This document shows, one piece after another, positions 9,412 through 56,557 of a stretch of DNA of 64,000 nt (position 1 is the first letter of the stretch; each line of letters starts with the position of its first letter). Origin of the DNA: Candidatus Shapirobacteria bacterium. GTDB taxonomy: Bacteria > Patescibacteriota > Microgenomatia > UBA12405. The translations under genes and the position numbers were made by a program. Where the stretch lies: assembly GCA_022837635.1 (NCBI GenBank), contig JALHFY010000001.1:96136-160135 (forward strand). Direction: 5' to 3'. Under the pieces are notes generated by a model. The model was not told where the DNA came from. It worked only from the letters and a program-made list of their open reading frames with translations, and searched no databases.

Positions 9412-10857
9412 TTGATGGCTGTTTTTCATTTGAAATATCGACCGACCAAAACTACTGACCTGGATTTACCTGAAGTATCGGAAAAAATAAAAAAGTTAAT
9501 TAGTGAAAAAAGTAGTTTTCAAGCCTTGTTGTTGGCGGGACCCAAGGGTTCCGGCAAGACTTCGGCGGCGCGAATTTTAGCCAAGGCGGTGAATTGTTTG
9601 GATTTGGTCAAGGGAGAGGCTTGTGGAAAGTGTGTTAATTGTCGGGAAATAGAAAAAGGTAACAGTTTGGATATTATTGAAATTGATGCGGCTTCAAACC
9701 GAGGAATTGATGACGTTCGGGCCTTAAAAGAAAATGCTTATTTGGTGCCGGTAAGGCTTCAGAAAAAGGTGTTTATTATTGATGAAGTACATATGTTGAC
9801 CAAGGAGGCTTTTAATGCGCTTTTAAAGCTGATAGAAGAGCCGCCGGAGAGGACCTTGTTTGTATTGTGTACCACTGATCCACAAAAGATACCGGAAACA
9901 GTTTTATCCAGATTATTAAGAATTAATTTTAGAAAAGGGGGAGCGGAGGATTTGGAGAGATCTTTGGATAAAGTAATTAAAGGGGAAAAAATTGAAATTG
10001 AGGCAGGGGCTAAAAAAATAATTATTGATAATTCCGATGGTAGTTTTCGGAATCTGCAAAAGAGTTTTAATGAAATTGTGTTGGAATATGGAAAAAAGAT
10101 TAAGAAGTCTCAGGTGGAGGAATATTTTGCTAAAAATAAGGGAGAATATGAAGCAGAGGAGTTGGAAAAAGATATAGCTAAAGGTGAAACGCAAAAGATT
10201 ATTAATCGATTGGAAGAAATGGCCGCCAAGGGAATTGATTTTGGAGAGTTGCGTTTGAAATGGTTGAATTTTTTTCATCAAAAAATGTTGGCAAATTTAG
10301 ATGATGCGAGATTAAAAGAAATTGTAGAAAAATTGGTAATGGCGGGAGGATGGGAAAAAATTTCACCGATTGAACAATTACCATTGGAAATGGTGATGAT
10401 TGAAATAACCAATAACCAAATTCCAATTTCCAAACAAATTACAAATCACAAAAAACAAATTACAAAGGAGGAGCCCGTCTCCGCCCCGCCGCTGCGGGGC
10501 TCCGACGTGGTGAAAATAGAAGAAATTGAAAATAGGTGGGGGGAAATATTAGCGGCGGTTAAACCCTTTAATCATTCAGTGGAGGCCTTTTTGAGGGCGG
10601 CTAGGCCTCAGAAGATGAATAAGGAGGAGTTGGTGATTGAGGTATTTTATAAATTTCATAAAGATAAACTGGAAGAGGCCAAGCATCGACAAATAGTTGA
10701 GAAGGGTTTAGATAAGGTTTTTGGTGAAGGGATGAGTTTTAGATGTGTGTTGGCGGAGAAAAAACAAGAAACAAGAGACAAGAAATTAGAAACTAGAATA
10801 GAAGATAAAAAAGAAGAGAAGGCGATAGAGGATGTGGCTAAAGAAATCTTTGGTTAA
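9412..10857 (+). CDS. dnaX: DNA polymerase III subunit gamma/tau
   Basis: Walker A GPKGSGKTS, a zinc module CGKCVNCREIEKG, and EIDAASNRGIDDVR. dnaX-ybaB-recR synteny supports the call. Confidence 0.9.
   Translation: MMAVFHLKYRPTKTTDLDLPEVSEKIKKLISEKSSFQALLLAGPKGSGKTSAARILAKAVNCLDLVKGEACGKCVNCREIEKGNSLDIIEIDAASNRGIDDVRALKENAYLVPVRLQKKVFIIDEVHMLTKEAFNALLKLIEEPPERTLFVLCTTDPQKIPETVLSRLLRINFRKGGAEDLERSLDKVIKGEKIEIEAGAKKIIIDNSDGSFRNLQKSFNEIVLEYGKKIKKSQVEEYFAKNKGEYEAEELEKDIAKGETQKIINRLEEMAAKGIDFGELRLKWLNFFHQKMLANLDDARLKEIVEKLVMAGGWEKISPIEQLPLEMVMIEITNNQIPISKQITNHKKQITKEEPVSAPPLRGSDVVKIEEIENRWGEILAAVKPFNHSVEAFLRAARPQKMNKEELVIEVFYKFHKDKLEEAKHRQIVEKGLDKVFGEGMSFRCVLAEKKQETRDKKLETRIEDKKEEKAIEDVAKEIFG
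10402..10448 (+). repeat. Intragenic copy of a ~47-nt AT-rich repeat also found at 620-667
   Basis: GAAATAACCAATAACCAAAT..CAATTTCCAAACAAATTACAAATC is about 94% identical to the tsf-frr intergenic copy. Here it is in-frame inside dnaX. Confidence 0.7.
10467..10507 (+). repeat. GC-rich imperfect palindrome inside dnaX (GCCCCGC-CGCT-GCGGGGC core)
   Basis: A 40-nt GC-rich block in an AT-rich gene. It encodes the PVSAPPLRGSD linker. Confidence 0.6.
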
Positions 10858-42933: not shown

Positions 42934-44896
42934 TTTCGGTGATAATTTTAACGCCTAATTTTTTGGCGGCAATTAATTTAGCAGAGTTGGAGCTAGGGTC
43001 ATTGGTGATGAGGTAATTGGTGTGTCGGGTGACAGTGGAGTGAAATTTACCGCCGGAATTTTCAATTTGTTGAACCAAGTCAGCACGGGGTTGAGAGAGA
43101 GTGCCGGTGATGGCAAAGTTGAGACCAGAGAGGGATTTTTTTTGGGCTGAAGGAGTGCTTAAAGTCGTATTGACAAGTATCGATATAATCCATTCTTGCC
43201 TGAAATTTATACCATCAATAATTTTTTGAGCCAAGGTTTTTTGAAAACCTTTTTGAGATAATAAATCTTCAAGAGTTAAATTTAATAGCTTGTCTGGAGT
43301 GTCAAAACCGACCAAAATTAATTGTTGAATGCGGGCAGCAGAGAAATTGGGAATGGCGGCAGCATTGAAAACTTCTTTGAGACTGAGACTTCTTTTGGAA
43401 TCGATTTGGGCCAGGATATTTTTGGCAGATTTTTCGCCGAGATTATCTAAATTGGCAATGTCGTGAAGTTGGAGTTTATAAAAATCGCCCGGTTGTTTAA
43501 CTTTGCCGGAGTGGTAGAGTTTTTCAATAGTTTTATCTGAGAGACCAAGGATATTCAGCCGATCACAGAAAAGTTTGAGAGAACCCAGGATTTGGGGTAA
43601 ACAATGATGGCCATTGGGACACTCTAAGTTTTTGTCAGCACGGTGTAAAGGAGTTTGACAGGCGGGACAATGGGTGGGAATAGTAACGTGGCCGGGGGTA
43701 ACCTTGGTAACCACACTTTCAATATGAGGAATGACATCACCACGACGAGATATTTCAATAATGTCACCCAGATTAAGATTTTTTTTGATGACTAAATCAT
43801 AGTTACCCAGAGAAGCAAAGTTGATGACCGCGCCGGAGATTTCCACTGGTTCAATTTCGGCAACGGGGGTGACGGAGCCCAAAGGGCCGACTTGCCAGAT
43901 AATTTTTTGAATTACACTTTGGTTGGAGTCAGCTGGGAATTTATAAGCCACTTGGTATTTAGGGCGGCCATTTTTTTCACCCAGACTTTGGGCAATATTC
44001 AGATTATTGATTTTGACGACTAAACCATCGATGTCAAAGGGGTAGTCTCCCCTATCTCGGCGTAAAAAATTTTGATAAATTGTTTCCACTTCTTCAAAAC
44101 TGTGACAGAGATGTGATTCCACCGGAGTAAAGCCCAGGTTTTTAAGCAAGTTTATTTTTTCTAGTTCAGTGTCAAGTGTGGGAGTGTTGACAGAAATGTC
44201 GGTAGCGTATAAAGAGCAAAGTTCAGAATACATACCATCCAGGCGTTGAGATAGACCGGAGGCGGCATTGCGAGGATTGGAATAAAATCCCTCCGGTCCC
44301 GATAAAATTGTTTTTTTTACGAGTTGATTTAATTTAATAAAGTCTTTTTTAGTCACCAAGATTTCACAGCGAACGGAACCGGTAAATTTTTTGGCAGTGC
44401 TTAAAACTACTTGTTTCATTTTGACTACATTTTGAGTAATGACATCGCCGGTGTGACCGTCACCTCTGGTAATGGCGTCTACAAGTTGGCCATTTTGATA
44501 TTCGATTTCCAGAGAAATACCGTCACATTTGGGCTGGACCAGAAAATCTTCCCCAATTTCCCTCTTATCCCCTTTTGACAAAGGGGAGGATAAAATTTTC
44601 TTTTTAAGTTCAAAGTAATGGACCAGATCGGAGTAGGTACTGACTTTGTTTTGAGAACCCATAGTGAGAGAGTGGGCTTTTTTCTCCCAGCCGGTGTCGA
44701 AATTGTCATGACCGACTTTGGAAAAGAGCCGATGATAGGGTGCTTTTTTCTTTAAGACAGCCTCAAGAGTATCGTAGGTGTGGTCGTCCATAATGGGCCG
44801 ACCGGTAGTGTAATAAGCTTTTTTGGCGTCGACTAAAATTTCACCTAGTTTTTGAGGAGAAATGCTTTCCAAGTCAAAATCAGCAAGAGAGTACAT
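42911..44896 (-). CDS. ligA: NAD-dependent DNA ligase
   Basis: Adenylation KxDG (QPKCDGISLEIEY), Zn-finger Cys4 (CPACQ...CPNGHHC), HhH and C-terminal BRCT. Confidence 0.9.
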   Translation of the reverse strand: MYSLADFDLESISPQKLGEILVDAKKAYYTTGRPIMDDHTYDTLEAVLKKKAPYHRLFSKVGHDNFDTGWEKKAHSLTMGSQNKVSTYSDLVHYFELKKKILSSPLSKGDKREIGEDFLVQPKCDGISLEIEYQNGQLVDAITRGDGHTGDVITQNVVKMKQVVLSTAKKFTGSVRCEILVTKKDFIKLNQLVKKTILSGPEGFYSNPRNAASGLSQRLDGMYSELCSLYATDISVNTPTLDTELEKINLLKNLGFTPVESHLCHSFEEVETIYQNFLRRDRGDYPFDIDGLVVKINNLNIAQSLGEKNGRPKYQVAYKFPADSNQSVIQKIIWQVGPLGSVTPVAEIEPVEISGAVINFASLGNYDLVIKKNLNLGDIIEISRRGDVIPHIESVVTKVTPGHVTIPTHCPACQTPLHRADKNLECPNGHHCLPQILGSLKLFCDRLNILGLSDKTIEKLYHSGKVKQPGDFYKLQLHDIANLDNLGEKSAKNILAQIDSKRSLSLKEVFNAAAIPNFSAARIQQLILVGFDTPDKLLNLTLEDLLSQKGFQKTLAQKIIDGINFRQEWIISILVNTTLSTPSAQKKSLSGLNFAITGTLSQPRADLVQQIENSGGKFHSTVTRHTNYLITNDPSSNSAKLIAAKKLGVKIITENDFQKLL

Positions 44897-44920
44897 GGGA
44901 TTATTATACTGGAAAATCTA

Positions 44921-44992
44921 CCCCTTAATCCCCTCCTTTGATGAAAGGAGGGGAACATTTGAATATAAAACCCCTCTTTATTCAAAGAGGGG
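44921..44992 (+). repeat. Two GC-rich hairpins (CCCCTCCTTT-GATG-AAAGGAGGGG and CCCCTCTTT-ATTC-AAAGAGGGG)
   Basis: Perfect 10- and 9-bp stems read from the sequence. The first is preceded by CCCCTTAATC, identical to the element at 52031-52064. Confidence 0.7.
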
Positions 44993-45002
44993 TAGGGGTG
45001 AT

Positions 45003-46133
45003 TTAGACATTACTTAGGCAATAATAAGCACCCTTGGTGGAGCCACGTTTTTGGACGACTTTATCATCAATCAGTTTTTTGAGGTCACGCCAAATAGTGT
45101 CATCACTGACCATGGGTAAAAGGGATTTGGCGTCGGGCATGCGGAGACCACCGAATTGTTGCATGTATTCGACTAATTTAATTTGTCTTTCACTAAGATG
45201 AATTTGTTTACCACCTAGTTTTTGTTTGAATTTAAGGTCCCGAGAGAGGGTTTGAACTTTGTCTTTGACCCGAGACAATTCAATGGCTAGGACTTCGGTG
45301 TAATAGGTTACCCAATCAGTAAGGTCGCGTTCAAAGATATCGCTGTCTTTTTCGTGGGTTGATTGAAGAGTGTTGTAATAGGTTTCAGCGTTACGATCAA
45401 AATATTCCTCAATAGAGAAAAGACGGCGAATGTCATAACCTTCAACATAAAGAGGTAAAATACCGAAAGCTCGGGAAACACGGCCATTACCTTCGACAAA
45501 AGGGTGGATGGCGACTAAAATGTATTGGGTAATAGCGGCACGGATAGCGGGATGAATCTCTCTGGATTTGGGCTCGTTGAGCCAGGCAACAAAGTCAGAC
45601 ATTAAATATGGGACTTCAATGGCTGGAGGTGGTCGATGAGCAATTTCTCCGGTTTGGGTATTTTTTAAGACGACTTGTTGGCGACGATATTTACCAATAT
45701 CGGCTTCGTCGATGATTTTGGTAGTAGTTAGTTCGTGGATTTTTTTAATAATGCTTTCGCTATAAAAAAAAGGTCGGTTTTTAGGATCGACTCCCTCTTT
45801 ATATTTTTCCTCAGGTAAGGGTAAACCAGCATCAAAGGTGGCCCAGATTTCTTCAAGGTAATTAATAACATTGCGGTAGTTGATGACTTCCTGAATATCC
45901 CGATCGGCAGCGGTAACTTGGCGGCCTTCGACCAATTTGGCCACGTCTTGGTAAGTTAGGTCATTACCTTCGATACGAGTACCATAGTGAACAGTCCGGA
46001 TGACAGCTTCCTGTTGAAATTGTTTTTCATAGGCAGGAATTAAGGGAGCCTCATCGATAACCGCTTTAGCGGCTTCGAGAGTACCGATGTTTTTTAGAAT
46101 CTGGTTATTAATGGTAAATATCGGAGAAAACAT
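45003..46133 (-). CDS. Fic/DOC-family protein with C-terminal wHTH
   Basis: Canonical Fic motif HPFVEGNGRVSRAF. TRIEGN segment near the N-terminus resembles the auto-inhibitory (S/T)xxxE(G/N) helix. Confidence 0.8.
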   Translation of the reverse strand: MFSPIFTINNQILKNIGTLEAAKAVIDEAPLIPAYEKQFQQEAVIRTVHYGTRIEGNDLTYQDVAKLVEGRQVTAADRDIQEVINYRNVINYLEEIWATFDAGLPLPEEKYKEGVDPKNRPFFYSESIIKKIHELTTTKIIDEADIGKYRRQQVVLKNTQTGEIAHRPPPAIEVPYLMSDFVAWLNEPKSREIHPAIRAAITQYILVAIHPFVEGNGRVSRAFGILPLYVEGYDIRRLFSIEEYFDRNAETYYNTLQSTHEKDSDIFERDLTDWVTYYTEVLAIELSRVKDKVQTLSRDLKFKQKLGGKQIHLSERQIKLVEYMQQFGGLRMPDAKSLLPMVSDDTIWRDLKKLIDDKVVQKRGSTKGAYYCLSNV

Positions 46134-46190
46134 GGTGGCCTTATTATAGCAGTTTTTTTTAAGATGTGAGGAAAAAATGCGGTTAATGGT

Positions 46191-46683
46191 AAAACCCTAT
46201 CCCCTCCCCCTTTCCCTTGACAGGGCAAGGGGTTTATATTTAATGTAATATAAAATACACATGAAAAATGGAATTGTAGTTGAATTAAAAACAAGAAAAT
46301 TTCATGTTCGATATTTGGAAAAATTAACTAGAGAATCCAGATTGCATCGTCGAAATCAAACGGAAGCAGAAAAAATAGTTTGGGAACAATTATTGCGACG
46401 AAAACAATTAGGAGTTAAGTTTGTACGTCAAAAAGCTGTTGATAGGTTTATATTAGATTTTTATTGTGCTGATTTATGTTTGGCAATAGAAATTGATGGA
46501 GATTATCACTTAAAGATTAAAGATAAAGATGATTATCGAGACAAGTTTTTACAAGCTTGTGGGATTCGAACTCTAAGATTTACTAACACGGAAGTATTAA
46601 CTGATTTAAATAAAGTTAAATCTACAATTTTGGAATTTATTCACCCTGCCCTGTCAAGGGAAGGGATGGGGAAGGGTTTTTAA
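46191..46683 (+). mobile_element. DUF559 endonuclease ORF bracketed by ~44-bp imperfect inverted repeats
   Basis: Left IR 46191-46234 (AAAACCCTATCCCCTCCCCCTTTCCCTTGACAGGGCAAGGGGTTT). Right IR 46641-46683 (reverse complement AAAAACCCTTCCCCATCCCTTCCCTTGACAGGGCAGGGTG). The right IR encodes the ORF C-terminus and stop. Confidence 0.5.
46261..46683 (+). CDS. DUF559 (Vsr-like restriction-endonuclease-fold) domain protein
   Basis: Pattern QTEAEKIVWEQLLRRKQLGVKFVRQKAVDRFILDFYCADLCLAIEIDGDYH...IRTLRFTNTEV is typical of DUF559. Confidence 0.7.
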   Translation: MKNGIVVELKTRKFHVRYLEKLTRESRLHRRNQTEAEKIVWEQLLRRKQLGVKFVRQKAVDRFILDFYCADLCLAIEIDGDYHLKIKDKDDYRDKFLQACGIRTLRFTNTEVLTDLNKVKSTILEFIHPALSREGMGKGF

Positions 46684-47306
46684 CTCAACAAAAACCAATC
46701 TAGGGCGCTTTTGGGGTCAACATTGGCTTCAATTAGTTCAAGAGAATGAATGAGGGCGGAGAGTTTTTTGGCGCTTTGAGCTGAGGGTTGTTGAATTAAT
46801 TCGATTTGCCAGGCAGTTATTTGTTCTAGAAGTAGATCTTTAATTTCACTTTTGTCGGTGTAAAGAGTTGGGGCTAAATTTAGATCTTTTTTAACTTGGC
46901 CACTGGTTTTAATGGGAGTGACCGATTTTGTCGGTTGAGTTTCAACGACTTTGATTTGGTGACAACGAGAGATGATAGTAGGTAGCAGTCGAGCGGGATG
47001 GGTAGATGTCAGAATAATATAGTTGTTTTCACCGGGATCTTCGAGGGTTTTTAAGAGAGTATTTTGAGATTCTAAATTAAGCTGGTGAGCTTCAGGGATA
47101 AAAATAATTTTACTGGGATGGTTGTAGGCTTTTTGAGAGAGAAATTTTTTGAGTTTACGGACGGCTTCGATACTATAATCAGTGAGTTCAAAAAGATCGG
47201 GGTTATTGTCAGGAAGATGGTTTAATTTGGAAAAAATTTCCAGTGCTTTTTGACGTGAAGATTGGGGGGAAGAGCTGATAATTAGGCTTGAAGGAAAGGG
47301 TGTCAT
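46680..47306 (-). CDS. holB: DNA polymerase III delta-prime subunit, short form lacking Walker A region
   Basis: LLKTLEDPGENNYIILTSTHPARLLPTIISRCHQIKV matches the delta-prime sensor/SRC region. Confidence 0.6.
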   Translation of the reverse strand: MTPFPSSLIISSSPQSSRQKALEIFSKLNHLPDNNPDLFELTDYSIEAVRKLKKFLSQKAYNHPSKIIFIPEAHQLNLESQNTLLKTLEDPGENNYIILTSTHPARLLPTIISRCHQIKVVETQPTKSVTPIKTSGQVKKDLNLAPTLYTDKSEIKDLLLEQITAWQIELIQQPSAQSAKKLSALIHSLELIEANVDPKSALDWFLLS

Positions 47307-51385: not shown

Positions 51386-52018
51386 ATGACAATGAGAAAA
51401 GCTTTTACATTGGTGGAACTATTGATAGTTATCACCTTGATTGCCATATTGTCGGTCGCAGTGTTGGCAACTTTGAATCCTATTGAACAGACCAATAAGG
51501 CTCGCGATGCTCAGTTTAAGAATGATGCGGCGGAAGTCTTGAGTGCTCATGAACGTTACTTTGCCTCCCAGAACGCTTATGCTTGGAATTCTGGCACTGG
51601 TCAAACTGTTGCTGTAGGAGTTGCTGCAGTAATGCCTGGAAATGTTCCTATGTTTGGAGTAGTAGGTAGCAATTGGGATGGTAATGGGGTCGGGTCTACA
51701 GATTCGCCTTTAATCCAGACATCAGAAATTAAAACCTCTTTTCTGAATAAGGCTCCTTTTAGAGAGGAACCTAAACCAATTGATATGTTTTATGCTTATA
51801 CTGATGGAGCGGACACTAATTATGTCTGTTTCTTTCCTAAAGCTAAGGCTAACAGAACTGGAGAGCAAGGAGCCAAGTTAAAATGTATGGATCCGGTTGA
51901 TACTGCAGATGCTCAAATATATTCACAAGGAGTGGGTTGTACATTAGCCACTTCTTGGACAAATGCTGATTTGACACCTCAAAGTGGGATAGCTAATTTG
52001 ATGTGTGTACCGGAATAA
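51386..52018 (+). CDS. Type IV (pseudo)pilin, likely major pilin
   Basis: Class III signal MTMRKA|FTLVELLIVITLIAILSVAV with Glu at +5. First pilin gene, followed by a strong terminator. Confidence 0.75.
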   Translation: MTMRKAFTLVELLIVITLIAILSVAVLATLNPIEQTNKARDAQFKNDAAEVLSAHERYFASQNAYAWNSGTGQTVAVGVAAVMPGNVPMFGVVGSNWDGNGVGSTDSPLIQTSEIKTSFLNKAPFREEPKPIDMFYAYTDGADTNYVCFFPKAKANRTGEQGAKLKCMDPVDTADAQIYSQGVGCTLATSWTNADLTPQSGIANLMCVPE

Positions 52019-52040
52019 GGTACTAAATCCACCCCTTAAT

Positions 52041-52075
52041 CCCCTCCTTTGAGTAAAGGAGGGGAGTTTTTTTTG
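52041..52075 (+). terminator. Intrinsic terminator: CCCCTCCTTT-GAGT-AAAGGAGGGG followed by T8
   Basis: Perfect 10-bp GC-rich stem plus a U-tract, read directly, just downstream of the major pilin. Same element as 44921-44954. Confidence 0.75.
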
Positions 52076-52086
52076 TACAATAGGCT

Positions 52087-52839
52087 ATGAATTTAGTTTG
52101 CTTTCTTTTGGGATTGGCGGTGGGGAGTTTTGTCAATATGGCAATATGGCGGGTGGAGCATAGGCAGTCGATTCTTAAAAAACAGCGAAGTTTTTGTGAT
52201 TTTTGTAAAAAGCCACTGAGATTTTATGACAACATTCCCCTACTCTCTTTTTTAGTATATAGAGGAAAAAGCCGATGTTGTGGTAAAAAATTGCCAGGAT
52301 ATTATCCGGTGGTGGAAATGTTGATGGGAATATTGTTTGCTTTAAAATCACCCCCTAGCCCCCTCTTTGAGGAAAGAGGGGGAATTGTGCTCTTAGTTTT
52401 ATGGAGTATATGGGTTTTGTTGGTTTTTGAGGCGGTGTTTGATGTCAAAAAAATGATGATTCCGGATGCGACGGCCATACCTTTAATGGTGTTGGCTGAA
52501 TTAAGGAGAAGATTGTTAGGTTTGCCGGTAAGTGAATGGTGGAGTGCTTTGGGAGCAGGTCTGTTTATCTGGTTATTAACTAAAATTAAAATTAAGGGGA
52601 AGCAAGCAATGGGCGAGGGTGATGCTTTGTTGGCGGTATTTATGGGACTATTTTTGAGTTTTCCTAAAATTATAGTGGCTTTTTATGTGGCTTTTATCAG
52701 CGGGGCGGTGATTGGTTTGATATTAATAGCGAAGAAAAAAAAGAAGCAACTCTCCCCTATTCCCTTTGGCCCCTTTTTAATTTTTGGAACAATAATTGCC
52801 TATTTTTGGGGAGAAAAAATTATTAGTTTATTTTTTTGA
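52087..52839 (+). CDS. pilD: Prepilin peptidase PilD (A24 family)
   Basis: N-terminal Zn-binding CxxC pairs (CDFCKK...CCGKK), polytopic membrane protein with the conserved Asp-containing loop. Contains an in-frame GC-rich repeat insertion (SPPSPLFEERGG). Confidence 0.85.
   Translation: MNLVCFLLGLAVGSFVNMAIWRVEHRQSILKKQRSFCDFCKKPLRFYDNIPLLSFLVYRGKSRCCGKKLPGYYPVVEMLMGILFALKSPPSPLFEERGGIVLLVLWSIWVLLVFEAVFDVKKMMIPDATAIPLMVLAELRRRLLGLPVSEWWSALGAGLFIWLLTKIKIKGKQAMGEGDALLAVFMGLFLSFPKIIVAFYVAFISGAVIGLILIAKKKKKQLSPIPFGPFLIFGTIIAYFWGEKIISLFF
52349..52383 (+). repeat. GC-rich palindromic element (ACCCCCTAGCC-CCCTCTTT-GAGG-AAAGAGGGGG) inside pilD coding sequence
   Basis: Same architecture as the intergenic elements at 44921 and 52031. 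Perfect 10-bp stem, read directly. Confidence 0.7.
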
Positions 52840-52860
52840 GAAAAGGTTACAATAGTTTAT

Positions 52861-53406
52861 ATGAAAAAACAGAAAGCAATAAGTTTAGTGGAGATAATAA
52901 TCGTGATAGCGATTTTGATGATTTTACTGGTAATTGCTTTGGGGATATTTAAGCCAGCGGCAATGGTTAATCGGGCTCAAGATGCCGAAAGAAAGGCAGA
53001 TTTGGATAGAATTAAAATTGCTTTTGAGGATTATTACAACGACAAAGGATGTTATCCAAATTACAACGAATATTTACATAAAATGTTTGATGAAGCTTAT
53101 TGTGATAAGGATTTTTTTAAGCCTTGGATGAACAAGTGGCCTTGTGATCCTGACGGTAAGCCCTATCCGATAATTGTGGGGGTTGGAAGTGAGACTGAAA
53201 TTTGTCCAAAGTTTTTTAAGATTATGGCTAAGTTGGAAAATAAAGGTGATCCTCATCTTTATAATCAAGGACCGATAGAGGAGGAGTTTGCCAACGTCGC
53301 CAACTACTCAGTTTCCAGTCCTAATTATCCAAATATTCCACCAACGATAATTGTGGATGCGACCAGTACTCCAATGTTGACCGATATCAGAACTCAAGGG
53401 GGCTAA
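52861..53406 (+). CDS. Type IV pilin-like protein (minor pilin 1)
   Basis: MKKQKA|ISLVEIIIVIAILMILLV class III signal with Glu at +5. Confidence 0.65.
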   Translation: MKKQKAISLVEIIIVIAILMILLVIALGIFKPAAMVNRAQDAERKADLDRIKIAFEDYYNDKGCYPNYNEYLHKMFDEAYCDKDFFKPWMNKWPCDPDGKPYPIIVGVGSETEICPKFFKIMAKLENKGDPHLYNQGPIEEEFANVANYSVSSPNYPNIPPTIIVDATSTPMLTDIRTQGG

Positions 53407-53408
53407 GT

Positions 53409-53930
53409 ATGATATCTTTAATTATGAAGAGAGCTTTCACTTTGGTAGAACTGTTAGTAGTGATAGCAATTATGGGAATTTTGACGACGATTGCGGTTGG
53501 ACAATTTCAGACTGCTAAAAGAAAGGCCAATGATGTGGCTCGTAAAGGTGATTTGGATGCTGTTTCCAAAGCTTTGCAACTTTATTATGCGGATTATAAG
53601 AGGTTTCCGGAGGCGACCAGTGATGGAAGAATGGTGATTGGGACGGGGACAACTGTGGAATGGGGTGATGAGTTTGTGGATGAGGGTTATATTTATATGA
53701 AAAAAATGCCTCAAGAGAATGTGGTGAGTTCCCCTCAGTATTGTTATAAGAGCAGTGCTGACGGTAAAAATTATGCTCTTTTTGCTAAATTGGAAAATAA
53801 AGAAGATAAGCAGTGTAAATTAGATGAAAATAAAAAAATGACCTATGATTGTGGAGGGATAACTGATAATTATTGTTTTGTTTATCTCAGTCCCAACGTG
53901 GAGGTAGATAGTGATGGAAATTTTATCTAA
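53409..53930 (+). CDS. Type IV pilin-like protein (minor pilin 2)
   Basis: ...MKRA|FTLVELLVVIAIMGILTTIAV. Alternative start at 53424. Confidence 0.7.
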   Translation: MISLIMKRAFTLVELLVVIAIMGILTTIAVGQFQTAKRKANDVARKGDLDAVSKALQLYYADYKRFPEATSDGRMVIGTGTTVEWGDEFVDEGYIYMKKMPQENVVSSPQYCYKSSADGKNYALFAKLENKEDKQCKLDENKKMTYDCGGITDNYCFVYLSPNVEVDSDGNFI

Positions 53931-53931
53931 T

Positions 53932-54324
53932 ATGAAAAAAGCTTTTACTTTAATTGAATTATTGGTAGTGATTTCGATTATTGGTGTTTTGACGGCGATA
54001 GTGGTGCCTAATTTTATGGGAGCCAGAGAAAGGGCTAGTGATAGCCAGAGAAAACAAGATATGGTGTCGATTAAAAATGCTTTGAGGACTTACTATAATG
54101 ACAATCAAAGATATCCGAGTATGGCCACTTGGACAGATGATATAGAAGACTATATTCCTTCAATTAAGGATTTTAGTGATTACAGTTATGTTTTAGTCAA
54201 TAGCGATGCTTTTACCTTGGGAGCGGAAATGGAGGCGACACGAGAACAGGAAATTAAGGATAGTCAAGACAGGTGTGGAATTACTGATGATAATGATACA
54301 AAATATTATGTATGTGCTAATTAA
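53932..54324 (+). CDS. Type IV pilin-like protein (minor pilin 3)
   Basis: MKKA|FTLIELLVVISIIGVLTAIVV. Start chosen after the upstream stop at 53930. Confidence 0.7.
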   Translation: MKKAFTLIELLVVISIIGVLTAIVVPNFMGARERASDSQRKQDMVSIKNALRTYYNDNQRYPSMATWTDDIEDYIPSIKDFSDYSYVLVNSDAFTLGAEMEATREQEIKDSQDRCGITDDNDTKYYVCAN

Positions 54325-54362
54325 AAATTAAAGCAATAAGTAAAATTACAAAATATAAATTT

Positions 54363-54770
54363 ATGAAGAAAGCGTTTACCCTTTTTGAACTATTGGTAGT
54401 GATTTCAATTATTGGGATTTTGATTGCGGTGGCGTCAATATCTTATAGTGGGGCTCAAAAAAAGTCTCGGGATGCTAGAAGGATTCAGGATATGAATGCG
54501 ATCCAGAAAGCAGCGGAGATGTATTACAGTCAGAACAATTATCTTTATCCAGGTAGCAGTCAATTGATTAGTTCAGGTTTGATGTCGGTGATGCCGACAG
54601 ATCCAAAGAATGCTTCTCCTTATGTTTATAGTTTTTCAGGGTTGACGAATGGGGCTAGTAATTATTGTCTTTGTGCCCTGTTGGAAAATGCTACAGGAGG
54701 TAATGCCAGTGATGGTAATTGCACTATGGCAAGTTCTGGTACTTATTATTGTGTTAGAAATCAACAATGA
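54363..54770 (+). CDS. Type IV pilin-like protein (minor pilin 4)
   Basis: MKKA|FTLFELLVVISIIGILIAVA. Confidence 0.7.
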   Translation: MKKAFTLFELLVVISIIGILIAVASISYSGAQKKSRDARRIQDMNAIQKAAEMYYSQNNYLYPGSSQLISSGLMSVMPTDPKNASPYVYSFSGLTNGASNYCLCALLENATGGNASDGNCTMASSGTYYCVRNQQ

Positions 54771-55138
54771 GAAAGGCTTTTACTTTGATCGAATTAATTG
54801 TGGTGATTACTATCATTGCGGTTTTAAGTGTAGTGGGAATGGTGAGTTTTTCAGGGATAAATATGAAATCTCGGGATGCTAGAAGGATTCAGGATTTACA
54901 AAAAATTGCGGCGGCTTTGGAGATATTTCGACAAGCTGATATTAGCAAGAGTTACCCAACAACAACAGCATCATTGGTACCTAATTATTTACAGGTTATG
55001 CCCACTGATCCCAAGACTAAAGCAAATTATCCTTATAATCGGGTGAATCCATATCGATATACTCTGACGGCAACTTTGGAAGATGCTCGAAATAATCCTA
55101 ACCAAGCTAGTACGACTTATACGCTAAATAGTCCTTGA
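54767..55138 (+). CDS. Type IV pilin-like protein (minor pilin 5)
   Basis: MRKA|FTLIELIVVITIIAVLSVV. ATGA overlap with the previous gene. Confidence 0.7.
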   Translation: MRKAFTLIELIVVITIIAVLSVVGMVSFSGINMKSRDARRIQDLQKIAAALEIFRQADISKSYPTTTASLVPNYLQVMPTDPKTKANYPYNRVNPYRYTLTATLEDARNNPNQASTTYTLNSP

Positions 55139-55158
55139 TTTGTGCTAAAGTTTTTATA

Positions 55159-55656
55159 GTGAAACGAGCTTTTACTTTAATTGAATTATTGGTAGCAGTA
55201 GGCATTATTTTGGTGTTGTCGGCGGGAGCTTTTGTCTATATAAATCAAGGTTTACAGAGGCAAAAATTGCTCAGGGCGGCAGGAGAAGTAATGTCAGGAT
55301 TCAGATTAGCTAATTCATTGGCAAAAACTAGACAAATGCCTCAAGGTAGCAGTGGTAATTTGGTGGTGGTGGAGAGTTATTTTAATAATAATAGATTGTA
55401 TGTAAATGCAATTTCATCGGTGGGGACAACAATTAATTTTTCTGAAGAGGTGGTAGAAATACCGATAAATAATAGTAACAGGTGGTTTTTTTATGCGGGA
55501 ACTGGATTTTTAGGGAAAAATGCGACTGGAACAATGTATGGTGCCGGGGAAACAGCCACCATTACCTTGAGTTTAAGTGAAAATTATAATATGTCGATTC
55601 CGATTTTTATTGACGCCATGGGTCAGGTGAGCCAAGGGGAGGTAGTGCAAAACTAA
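55159..55656 (+). CDS. Type IV pilin-like protein (minor pilin 6); start uncertain (GTG 55159 or TTG 55135)
   Basis: VKRA|FTLIELLVAVGIILVLSAGA. Confidence 0.6.
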   Translation: MKRAFTLIELLVAVGIILVLSAGAFVYINQGLQRQKLLRAAGEVMSGFRLANSLAKTRQMPQGSSGNLVVVESYFNNNRLYVNAISSVGTTINFSEEVVEIPINNSNRWFFYAGTGFLGKNATGTMYGAGETATITLSLSENYNMSIPIFIDAMGQVSQGEVVQN

Positions 55657-56060
55657 TGAAAAAAGGTCAAGCTTTAATTGAATCAGTGGTGGCAGTGGGA
55701 GTTTTGGCTTTGGTGATGACGGCGGCAATTGCTTTGATAGTGATGTCAACTGCCAATAGAAGGAGCAATTTTGACAGGAGAAAGGCCAATGAATTGGCTA
55801 ATAAAGTAGTAGAGACTTTTGTTAATGAGAGTCAGAATAATGTGGTTGTTTTTTGGAATAATTTGAGTGGAGGTGATTGCGGGGAATCCGCTTTTACTGG
55901 ATATACTTGTAACTATAATTTTACTATATTGACTCAACCGGCTCATGCTAATTGTGGCAATGGCTCACCACCCAGATGTGTTGAATTGACAGTAACAGTC
56001 AGCTGGCCCGGAAAAACACCGCAAAATTTAATTGTTAAGCGTTTTTTTAGTCAAGGATGA
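55656..56060 (+). CDS. Type IV pilin-like protein (minor pilin 7, Gly at -1)
   Basis: MKKG|QALIESVVAVGVLALVMTAAIALI with Glu at +5. Confidence 0.65.
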   Translation: MKKGQALIESVVAVGVLALVMTAAIALIVMSTANRRSNFDRRKANELANKVVETFVNESQNNVVVFWNNLSGGDCGESAFTGYTCNYNFTILTQPAHANCGNGSPPRCVELTVTVSWPGKTPQNLIVKRFFSQG

Positions 56061-56557
56061 AAAGGGCTTTTACTTTGATTGAAATTGTGGTGATGGTGGC
56101 TATTTTGGGGTTGATTATGACGATGTTGTCTGGATCTTTAGGAATTTCTTTTAAGCTTAAAAATTCAACTGAAACTAATGAGAAATTGACCAGTAAAGCT
56201 AATTTTGTTTTTAATGAATTGAAAAAAAATATTTTAGAGGCTAAACCGGAAACGATAGTTTGTAGTGGTGGTAATCAACTGCGTTACACGGCGACTAATG
56301 GTAAAGAGATTGTTTTAAGCTGTGATATAGTTGGAAGCCAGATTGCTTCCAGGTCAGCGACAACAGGAGAGGTTTTTTATTTATTAGATAAGGAAGTTTC
56401 ACCTAATAATTGCAGTAATTTTGTTACTTGTCATTTGAGAACAGGAAGTAGTGTGGTGGAGTCGGTAGATGTGGTTTTGGATTTAAGGACAGTAGTGGGG
56501 GCTGAGGGAGTGGGTAGTAGTGGTCGTTTTTACCAAACAATTTCGCCACGTCTCTAA
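56057..56557 (+). CDS. Type IV pilin-like protein (minor pilin 8)
   Basis: MKRA|FTLIEIVVMVAILGLIMTML. Confidence 0.7.
   Translation: MKRAFTLIEIVVMVAILGLIMTMLSGSLGISFKLKNSTETNEKLTSKANFVFNELKKNILEAKPETIVCSGGNQLRYTATNGKEIVLSCDIVGSQIASRSATTGEVFYLLDKEVSPNNCSNFVTCHLRTGSSVVESVDVVLDLRTVVGAEGVGSSGRFYQTISPRL

Follow-up and report, generated by a model that had tools for sequence, protein, structure and literature searches.

A DUF559 nuclease gene stands between two inverted repeat units at the holB-fic locus

We analyzed a 64,000-nucleotide stretch of DNA from a Candidatus Shapirobacteria bacterium (GenBank assembly GCA_022837635.1, contig JALHFY010000001.1, positions 96,136 to 160,135; hereafter "the window," numbered from its first letter), in which a nuclease gene of the DUF559 family lies between fic and holB and is bracketed by inverted copies of a short GC-rich hairpin repeat. 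The cassette spans approximately 490 bp and comprises the nuclease gene and its own short leader, enclosed by one unit of subtype T2 and one of subtype T1 of the dispersed repeat described below. Both fic (45003 to 46133) and holB (46680 to 47306) are encoded in tandem on the minus strand, in the order holB then fic, and the DUF559 gene is placed between them and antisense to both. A first-pass annotation, made from the sequence alone, had located the gene correctly between these neighbors but had described them as divergently oriented.

The open reading frame (ORF; 46261 to 46683, plus strand) encodes 140 amino acids and matches Pfam DUF559 (PF04480) over residues 21 to 127 (E = 1.9e-28) with 99 bits against a gathering cutoff of 20.6, in agreement with its earlier designation as a Vsr-like DUF559 protein; Pfam also gave weaker matches, to families of related restriction-type nucleases. 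Two solved structures were matched by a profile built from 22 homologs: 3HRL, described as an "endonuclease-like protein" (E = 1e-33), and, at E = 2.5e-4, 3R3P, which is the catalytic domain of I-Bth0305I, a homing endonuclease of the Vsr fold. The catalytic residues D66, E77, D79, and H83 (D...E-x-D...H) are intact in the window protein and invariant in the 22-sequence alignment (A1). Homology to 3HRL and 3R3P is enough to settle the fold, and the protein is assigned as a DUF559/Vsr-fold PD-(D/E)xK nuclease. Searches of the window protein against Pfam, NCBIfam, and the PDB returned only DUF559 and restriction-type nuclease families and no HUH Y1 transposase, and no recognized transposase domain was found with Pfam and NCBIfam. 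A PADLOC search for defense systems gave weak matches only, to restriction-type nucleases.

The flanking inverted repeats, already noted as imperfect in the first-pass annotation, were recovered as two matches (I1, 46209 to 46240 with 46634 to 46665, 32 nt, 81%; I4, 46191 to 46208 with 46663 to 46680, 18 nt, 83%), which a gapped alignment joins into arms of about 42 nt (46191 to 46232) and 40 nt (46642 to 46681). The 18-mer arm core occurs at these two sites only in the 64 kb, and two or more matches arose in 0 of 100 shuffles. The left arm (plus strand; AAAACCCTATCCCC TCCCCCT TTCCCTTGACAGGGCAAGGGG; nhmmer E = 8e-10) is of subtype T2 and has its hairpin at 46207 to 46232, and the inverted right arm (minus strand; AAAAACCCTTCCCCATCCC TTCCCTTGACAGGGCAGGG TG as read on that strand; nhmmer E = 3e-13) is of subtype T1 with its hairpin at 46644 to 46665. 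Each arm folds, as had been proposed; however, the CCCTTG/CAAGGG pairing suggested for both is available on the left arm only, and the most favorable structure nests one stem within another across a 1x1 mismatch (CCCCTT.CCCT[TGAC]AGGG.AAGGGG). The right arm codes for the last 13 codons of the DUF559 gene (HPALSREGMGKGF) and its TAA stop, so that the earlier statement that the repeat supplies the end of the gene stands, with 13 codons in place of 14. An Rfam search of the arms detected no known RNA family and no group I or II intron.

Both edges of the insertion can be placed against the neighboring genes. On the holB side, the holB stop codon (TAA; 46680 to 46682, minus strand) overlaps the DUF559 stop and the outer end of the right arm. 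On the other side, the fic promoter and 5′ region (46134 to 46190, minus strand; CTCACA-16-TATAAT at 46170 to 46143), identified by promoter scan and comparison with relatives, lies outside the cassette, and its CCGCATTTT block, conserved in all relatives, forms the second boundary. Between the left arm and the ATG lies a leader (46233 to 46260, plus strand; TTTATATTTAATGTAATATAAAATACAC), delimited by sequence comparison, that is conserved in the related locus L005 (loci used for comparison carry L numbers); similar leaders containing AATGTAAT occur in L086 and L115. The loop region of the left-arm hairpin contains a perfect −35 hexamer, TTGACA (46217 to 46222), and TTTAAT follows 16 nt further on (to 46244). 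The leader therefore probably holds a −10 element and the 5′ untranslated region. The promoter scan, whose second hexamer requires A at position 2, did not list TTGACA-16-TTTAAT. Many other unit subfamilies also have TTGAC, TTGAT, or TTGAA in the hairpin loop. The units could serve as mobile half-promoters.

The arms belong to a dispersed family of small palindromic units

To characterize the repeat, we scanned for its invariant 19-mer core (TTCCCTTGACAGGGCARGG) using one genome per species, which returned at least 118 stretches; the counts in this section are among the matches listed. Roughly eight of these appear to be chance matches, as expected for a pattern of this length. The remainder come mostly from Ca. 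Shapirobacteria metagenome-assembled genomes (MAGs), begin sharply at AAACCC on the 5′ side, and can be sorted into two subtypes. From its AAACCC head the unit continues through a C-rich tract into a GC hairpin, 36 to 42 nt in all, with AAACCC(T) present in 120 of 127 units tabulated. Subtype T1 (AAACCCTTCCCnnnCCC-TTCCCTTGACAGGGCAGGG) has a modal length of 36 nt, equal to 12 codons, and subtype T2 (AAACCCTAACCCTnCCCT-TTCCCTTGACAGGGCAAGGG) has a modal length of 38 nt and includes a TAA. Covariation in the outer stem is perfect (C with G, 78/78; T with A, 49/49), and since the extra T of T2 is always paired with an extra A, the nested hairpin is supported as the selected form. Because the sequence of the 5′ hairpin arm recurs in the C-tract, other hairpins, or a triplex, might also form. 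By sequence, the G-rich strand of all T1 and T2 units is a canonical G-quadruplex motif (GGGAAGGGnnnGGGAAGGG; in the window, 46642 to 46681, plus strand), and CCCTAACCCT, found in T2 and in an E. coli element discussed below, resembles a telomere repeat.

The two subtypes differ in where they are found. Of 78 T1 copies, 41 lie in frame within ORFs of at least 150 amino acids, which read through them in several frames and in either orientation, whereas T2 units are intragenic in 6 of 49 copies and the majority stand exactly at gene 3′ ends. Pfam confirmed ribonucleotide reductase (RNR), a class I aminoacyl-tRNA synthetase, and PheT as T1 hosts, and ligA was read as a host from its translation. 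In-frame T1 peptides (KPFPNPSLDRAG, LPALSREGxGKG, and PCPVKGRVREGF) were seen in L051, L095, L096, L023, L117, L066, and L079, and the hosts in those Shapirobacteria loci are the genes for ribonucleotide reductase, class I tRNA synthetase, PheT, ligA, and VirB4-like proteins. Two loops of ligA are hot spots: depending on the genome they hold different unit subfamilies, a different MITE (miniature inverted-repeat transposable element), a decayed remnant, or nothing. This variation between genomes indicates that units were inserted repeatedly and independently. With its gene-end positions, in-frame sites, and genome-specific hot spots, the unit behaves like a small mobile element, to judge from its distribution. 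Many MAGs titled "uncultured Gammaproteobacteria" (TPA_asm; L012, L013, L015, and others) carry Shapirobacteria-type genes and repeats, and the genome of L005, syntenic with the window, is among them; these titles look like taxonomic mislabels.

The arm-gene-arm layout recurs at unrelated loci

Further DUF559 genes bracketed by inverted repeats, as the first-pass annotation had anticipated, were present in other genomes. At the syntenic holB-fic locus of another species (L005), a 76%-identical protein is flanked by matching arms. The same layout occurs at three unrelated loci: L009, where a 58%-identical protein stands among unrelated TPR genes between arms with the same core; L100, a second, frameshifted copy in the L009 genome; and L021, in another genome. 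The two copies within one genome (L009 and L100) are similar from AAACCC to GGGTTT and their flanks are unrelated. The left arm is T2 in the window, L005, and L021 and T1 in L009 and L100. In the four cassettes that were inspected closely (window, L005, L009, and L100), the ORF ends at a stop in the outer end of the right arm. In a comparison of L009 with L010, an apparent element boundary was set aside: the difference is more readily attributed to recombination of two direct T2 units, with loss of a 2-kb TPR gene.

The arms need not have this particular hairpin. In L051, L055, and L115, DUF559 genes have arms of the same architecture with different hairpins, and the arms within each cassette match each other; L104 and L117 are partial cases of DUF559 cassettes with other hairpins. 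Among the matches listed, facing inverted pairs of units had a bimodal spacing: about 400 nt in five cases, all with DUF559, and 10 to 22 nt in four cases, which are gene-less composites resembling REPINs (doublets of repetitive extragenic palindromic [REP] sequences). Together, the loci compared show a cassette that has moved between loci over evolutionary time, with no target-site duplication (TSD) seen, and a window copy that is vertically stable and constrained, as far as sequence comparison can tell.

The window cassette is an old insertion maintained by selection

To place the insertion in time, we examined the same junction in relatives. Empty fic-holB junctions, which had also been anticipated, were found in L209, L210, and L211 (holB 57 to 59% identical), where the order pilB-holB-fic-ligA is kept without DUF559. 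The spacer differs in each: in L211, 10 nt (TAAAACCCTTTTT...) separate the holB stop from the fic promoter block; in L210, a 160-nt gene-less composite of another subfamily is present; and in L209, a different MITE. These varying states indicate that the holB-fic site is a hot spot and that the cassette is an insertion relative to L209, L210, and L211. The L211 junction (TAAAACCCTTTTTCCGC) was tried as a base-exact boundary and rejected, because it could be read as a footprint, as what is left of a unit head, or as the target in its original state. The MITE-like family of L209, with CGTCATTGCGAG...CTCGCAATGACG ends, occupies both the holB-fic spacer (L209 4128 to 4233) and the L209 ligA loop, so that the same insertion niches are used by small elements of unrelated kinds.

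Comparison of the window with L005 shows saturated synonymous sites (dS = 1.1 to 1.6). The ratio of nonsynonymous to synonymous divergence (dN/dS) is 0.13 for DUF559, compared to 0.11 for holB and 0.09 for ligA, and the arms are identical at 48/50 and 47/50 positions (94 to 96%), including synonymous positions of the last codons. Low dN/dS and arm identity in the face of saturated dS argue that gene and arms are both maintained by selection, the arms at the DNA or RNA level. An identical protein was found on four contigs, in the same context in 4/4. Judged by this divergence, the window cassette is old, having entered before the split from the L005 species, and its mobility is historical, not recent. 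In L005 itself, four independent contigs show a 1-nt deletion in the conserved N-terminal region of DUF559. Directly outside the left arm there is an additional two-hairpin unit of 89 nt (L005 4795 to 4880), an indication that units cluster side by side.

Inverted-repeat bracketing is enriched across the DUF559 family

To determine how broadly bracketing extends beyond these genomes, we scored 80 metagenomic DUF559 loci of 35 to 52% identity that had been chosen without regard to repeats, 70 of which had enough flank to score. For the inverted-repeat (IR) score, the 200 nt upstream of the domain were compared with the 150 nt on its downstream side and their best inverted match was taken; the threshold was at least 30. 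This threshold was reached by 20 of 70 DUF559 loci (29%) and by 5 of 418 control ORFs in the same loci (1.2%), an enrichment of about 24-fold (odds ratio = 33, Fisher p = 3e-14). The bracketed loci range from 33 to 68% GC, and their arms consist of a C-run hairpin and a repeated G-run ending in ATTT or TTT. Many DUF559 proteins end in tails such as PPLSKGGKGGF. A screen for programmed inversions lists "DUF559 domain-containing protein" as 14-fold enriched among predicted targets, without discussing it (PMC9881135). Family-wide bracketing probably explains both the tails and this enrichment.

Other repeat units and features of the window

The window contains further units, of other subfamilies, outside the cassette. 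One lies in frame in ligA (44543 to 44590, plus strand; peptide SSPLSKGDKREIGED) and is absent from the ligA of L209, L210, L211, and L117. A second is in frame in the prepilin peptidase gene (52343 to 52383, plus strand; SPPSPLFEERGG), between the A24_N and Peptidase_A24 domains assigned by Pfam, and a solo unit identified by repeat comparison directly follows the stop codon of a pilin gene (52025 to 52067, plus strand). Between the fic stop and the ligA start, a gene-less composite (44914 to 45004, no strand assigned), strongly structured (DNA fold z = −7.2), consists of two inverted units of another subfamily with a 15-nt spacer. The reverse complement of its spacer (TTTATATTCAAATGT) resembles the start of the DUF559 leader, and the composite and the cassette leader have TTTATATT.AATGT in common. 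The composite has the appearance of a REPIN or of a MITE-like derivative produced by deletion. A "...TTAAGT" junction in the composites of L083, L084, and L093 was considered as evidence for such derivation and dropped, since it is also present on the solo unit L014. At the position between fic and ligA, L005 has an unrelated tandem-octamer spacer, and in L117 a full DUF559 cassette is located directly upstream of ligA.

Elsewhere in the window, eight tandem genes with a type IV pilin-like N-terminal motif (repeat family D1; 51391 to 56122) follow pilB, a pilT-like gene, and pilC and constitute a large pilin cluster. An isolated GC-rich island (10465 to 10513; GGAGCCCGTCTCCGCCCCGCCGCTGCGGGGCTCCGACGTGG) has its own hairpin and adjoins a 29-nt repeat shared with 643 to 671. 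GC skew is above zero in almost all 1-kb bins, and the cumulative curve climbs almost without interruption through nearly the entire window, which apparently contains no replication origin or terminus.

Comparison with known repeat-enzyme systems

The closest parallel is the partnership of REP sequences and REPINs with REP-associated tyrosine transposases (RAYTs) (Nunvar 2010; Bertels and Rainey 2011; Ton-Hoang 2012; PMC3337134; PMC8266576). In both, an enzyme gene, single here, stands between two inverted copies of a cognate hairpin repeat that is also dispersed; the repeats are found either singly or as inverted doublets whose members are separated by a short spacer; inheritance is vertical under purifying selection; and different enzyme copies go with different hairpins. 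REP/RAYT systems also lack TSDs, and none was seen here. The systems differ in the enzyme, a PD-(D/E)xK/Vsr-fold nuclease here and an HUH Y1 (IS200-like) transposase in RAYTs, and in the repeat, which here has an AAACCC head and C-rich tract in place of the GTAG or CGTC tetranucleotide tag of REPs. Many units here are also intragenic and in frame, whereas REPs are extragenic, and the cassette ORF runs through the right arm.

Three other systems share some of these features. I-Bth0305I (PDB 3R3P), a homing endonuclease of the Vsr fold, acts as a homodimer on a pseudopalindromic target (PMC3239194). Such EDxHD homing endonucleases resemble the cassette in their homologous catalytic fold and motif and in presence/absence polymorphism at a conserved locus, and a homodimer with a pseudopalindromic site would fit a target made of two inverted units. 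The cassette is, in contrast, intergenic, with no intron or intein (Rfam), its 140-amino-acid protein lacks extra DNA-binding domains, its gene is repeat bracketed, and the window copy is vertically stable. Rickettsia palindromic elements (RPEs) likewise are short palindromic repeats inserted in frame in genes, including essential ones, adding short peptides. The units match them in being in-frame palindromic insertions for which alleles lacking the insertion exist; they differ in their length of 36 to 42 nt (RPEs measure roughly 100 to 150 bp), in their host phylum within the candidate phyla radiation (CPR), and in having a candidate partner gene. Insertion sequences (ISs) and MITEs are comparable in having terminal inverted repeats and an ORF that stops within the right repeat; short derivatives lacking the gene also exist, and some genomes have several copies. 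Yet the cassette has no DDE, HUH, serine, or tyrosine transposase and no TSD was seen. At about 490 bp, it is also shorter than any autonomous IS known to us (IS200 is about 700 bp).

Weighing the explanations

We consider it probable that the locus is a nuclease cassette associated with repeats, an analog of REP/RAYT or of a homing element, and that its mobility is historical. The first-pass annotation had called it a compact selfish element, either a mobile cassette or a DUF559 gene captured by a repeat family. Both halves of that alternative are partly borne out, since the arms belong to a common dispersed family, and the mobile-cassette part of the name is partly justified; "selfish," however, overstates the case for the window copy, given its vertical inheritance, purifying selection (dN/dS = 0.13), arms conserved far beyond neutral sites, no TSD seen, and a nuclease that is not a known transposase. 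An IS-like or homing element that is purely selfish, active at present, and a recent arrival between holB and fic would account for the terminal inverted repeats, the ORF ending in the right arm, the copies at several loci of which one has decayed (the frameshifted L100), and the empty sites in relatives. We nevertheless regard it as unlikely, because the cassette sits at the same locus in a species at saturated synonymous divergence, its dN/dS is like that of the neighboring housekeeping genes, its arms are 94 to 96% conserved, four contigs with the identical protein share one context, no TSD was seen around the window, L009, or L100 copies, and the protein has no transposase-type catalytic domain. 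A long-lived partnership of the REP/RAYT kind fits better than a recent selfish insertion. That the arms are instead the common repeat serving as terminators or insulators beside an unrelated housekeeping or defense nuclease, coincidentally or by capture, we judge quite improbable. Units are indeed common at gene 3′ ends, the left arm scores as terminator-like, the right arm lies between the convergent holB and DUF559 genes, and PADLOC gave its weak matches to restriction-type nucleases. Yet this hairpin brackets the gene at five loci, and at further loci the two arms match each other and are specific to their cassette; among the matches listed, the spacing of about 400 nt brackets DUF559 exclusively; enrichment across the family is about 24-fold; the ORF reaches a stop at the outer end of the right arm in the window, L005, L009, and L100; and in-frame insertions in essential genes mean that units are not terminators there. 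Two independent terminator hairpins as the full explanation, the alternative against which the first-pass annotation had set its proposal, are excluded by the existence of other IR-DUF559 units and of empty sites.

Two further explanations concern what the nuclease or its arms do. If the cassette were invertible or regulated, its arms acting as sites of programmed inversion or as operators or structured RNA that control a toxic nuclease, with no mobility, this would agree with the 14-fold enrichment of DUF559 among predicted inversion targets (PMC9881135), the occurrence of the gene in both orientations relative to the T1 and T2 arms, the strong constraint on the arms, and the −35-like TTGACA in the hairpin loop. 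Such a cassette seems to us an unlikely account: no recombinase gene is adjacent, inversion would not switch expression because the leader and promoter region invert with the gene, and dispersed solo units, in-frame copies, and empty sites are left unexplained. Least probable is a Vsr-type very-short-patch mismatch-repair enzyme serving a cytosine methyltransferase. The Vsr-like fold and catalytic residues are present, and JGI names homologs "very-short-patch-repair endonuclease"; however, no methyltransferase gene is adjacent (the neighbors are fic and holB), so that dcm-vsr linkage is absent, the Pfam match is to DUF559 (PF04480) with the Vsr family not among the matches, and the arms go unexplained. 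None of these four alternatives explains the whole pattern.

Several observations weigh against the nuclease-cassette interpretation itself. In the window, the cognate subfamily is represented by the two arms only. No direct repeat suggestive of a TSD surrounds the window, L009, or L100 copies, the empty sites being too diverged for base-exact boundaries, nor do the loci compared offer a clean pair, one filled and one empty, involving the same subfamily. TSDs are also missing from several IS families. Loci selected by pattern are a biased sample, only 29% of the metagenomic DUF559 loci reached the IR threshold, and an extra arm copy within 3 kb was found for 1 of 19 non-Shapirobacteria cassettes, so that dispersal is not a general companion of bracketing. 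Finally, we know of no strand-transfer activity in PD-(D/E)xK nucleases.

Under the nuclease-cassette interpretation, the cassette would have entered between the holB stop and the fic promoter in an ancestor of the window species and the L005 species and been kept by selection afterwards. The nuclease, probably a dimer like I-Bth0305I, may recognize its own arms and other cognate units and nick or cut them; the break could then be repaired by recombination with another copy, the arms of about 40 bp providing homology. Such repair would copy the gene into paired units, a form of homing into repeats, and would move or homogenize units. The nuclease would thus take the role that RAYT has for REP/REPIN, by different chemistry. 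That the protein acts on the arms, and the manner of its action, we infer by analogy with these systems.

A possible parallel in E. coli and implications

ycjD of E. coli K-12 is a DUF559 gene whose ORF ends inside a GC hairpin element. In the ycjD-fabI spacer (L213 4040 to 4430), a partial duplicate of the ycjD 3′ end follows the hairpin, and a related inverted element, made up of a C-tract (ACCCTAACCCT) and a hairpin, lies 154 nt downstream of ycjD. This inverted element has a median of 18 copies per E. coli genome. It is a candidate BoxC repeat, a family reported to have been first described in this very envM (fabI) region (Bergler 1992). Its copy number and size fit published BoxC, for which 22 to 32 copies of 50 to 56 bp are reported (PMC2267715). 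ycjD is present in 3,378 of 5,426 complete genomes, and across E. coli phylogroups the site between sapF and fabI holds, in alternation, ycjD or the eefRABCD efflux operon (PMC12817139). No matching left arm was seen upstream of ycjD, and YcjD matches the window protein at the family level only (54 bits against an equivalog cutoff of 218 bits). We regard this BoxC-like parallel as a lead and not as a result.

Full-text literature searches found no account of DUF559 or Vsr-like genes bracketed by cognate dispersed repeats, the nearest being one table line (PMC9881135), and none of in-frame palindromic units in CPR bacteria. The type of partnership is already known; what is new here is a repeat-plus-enzyme partnership with a different enzyme class. 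A broader proposal, which we offer tentatively and think somewhat doubtful, is that DUF559 proteins are the partner enzymes of widespread orphan repeats of the C-tract and GC-hairpin type. These would form a second, Vsr-fold system of the REP/RAYT kind, extending from CPR bacteria to E. coli with YcjD behind BoxC-type repeats, and spreading or homogenizing the repeats and their own gene by break-induced recombination. The E. coli parallel would make this idea testable in the best-studied bacterium.

To our knowledge, stand-alone members of the very large DUF559 family have no assigned function, and several short bacterial palindromic repeat families, such as BoxC, have no known mobilizing or processing enzyme. 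A conserved coupling of repeat and DUF559, if true, would give both a testable function, and the REP/RAYT paradigm, in which repeat and enzyme stay partnered over long times, would gain a second class of enzyme. Annotation and assembly are affected by the units, which give rise to spurious peptide tails (PPLSKGG, ALSREG, and the like) and to hot spots of recombination, and the coupling could explain the presence of 12-codon repeats inside essential genes of streamlined CPR genomes.

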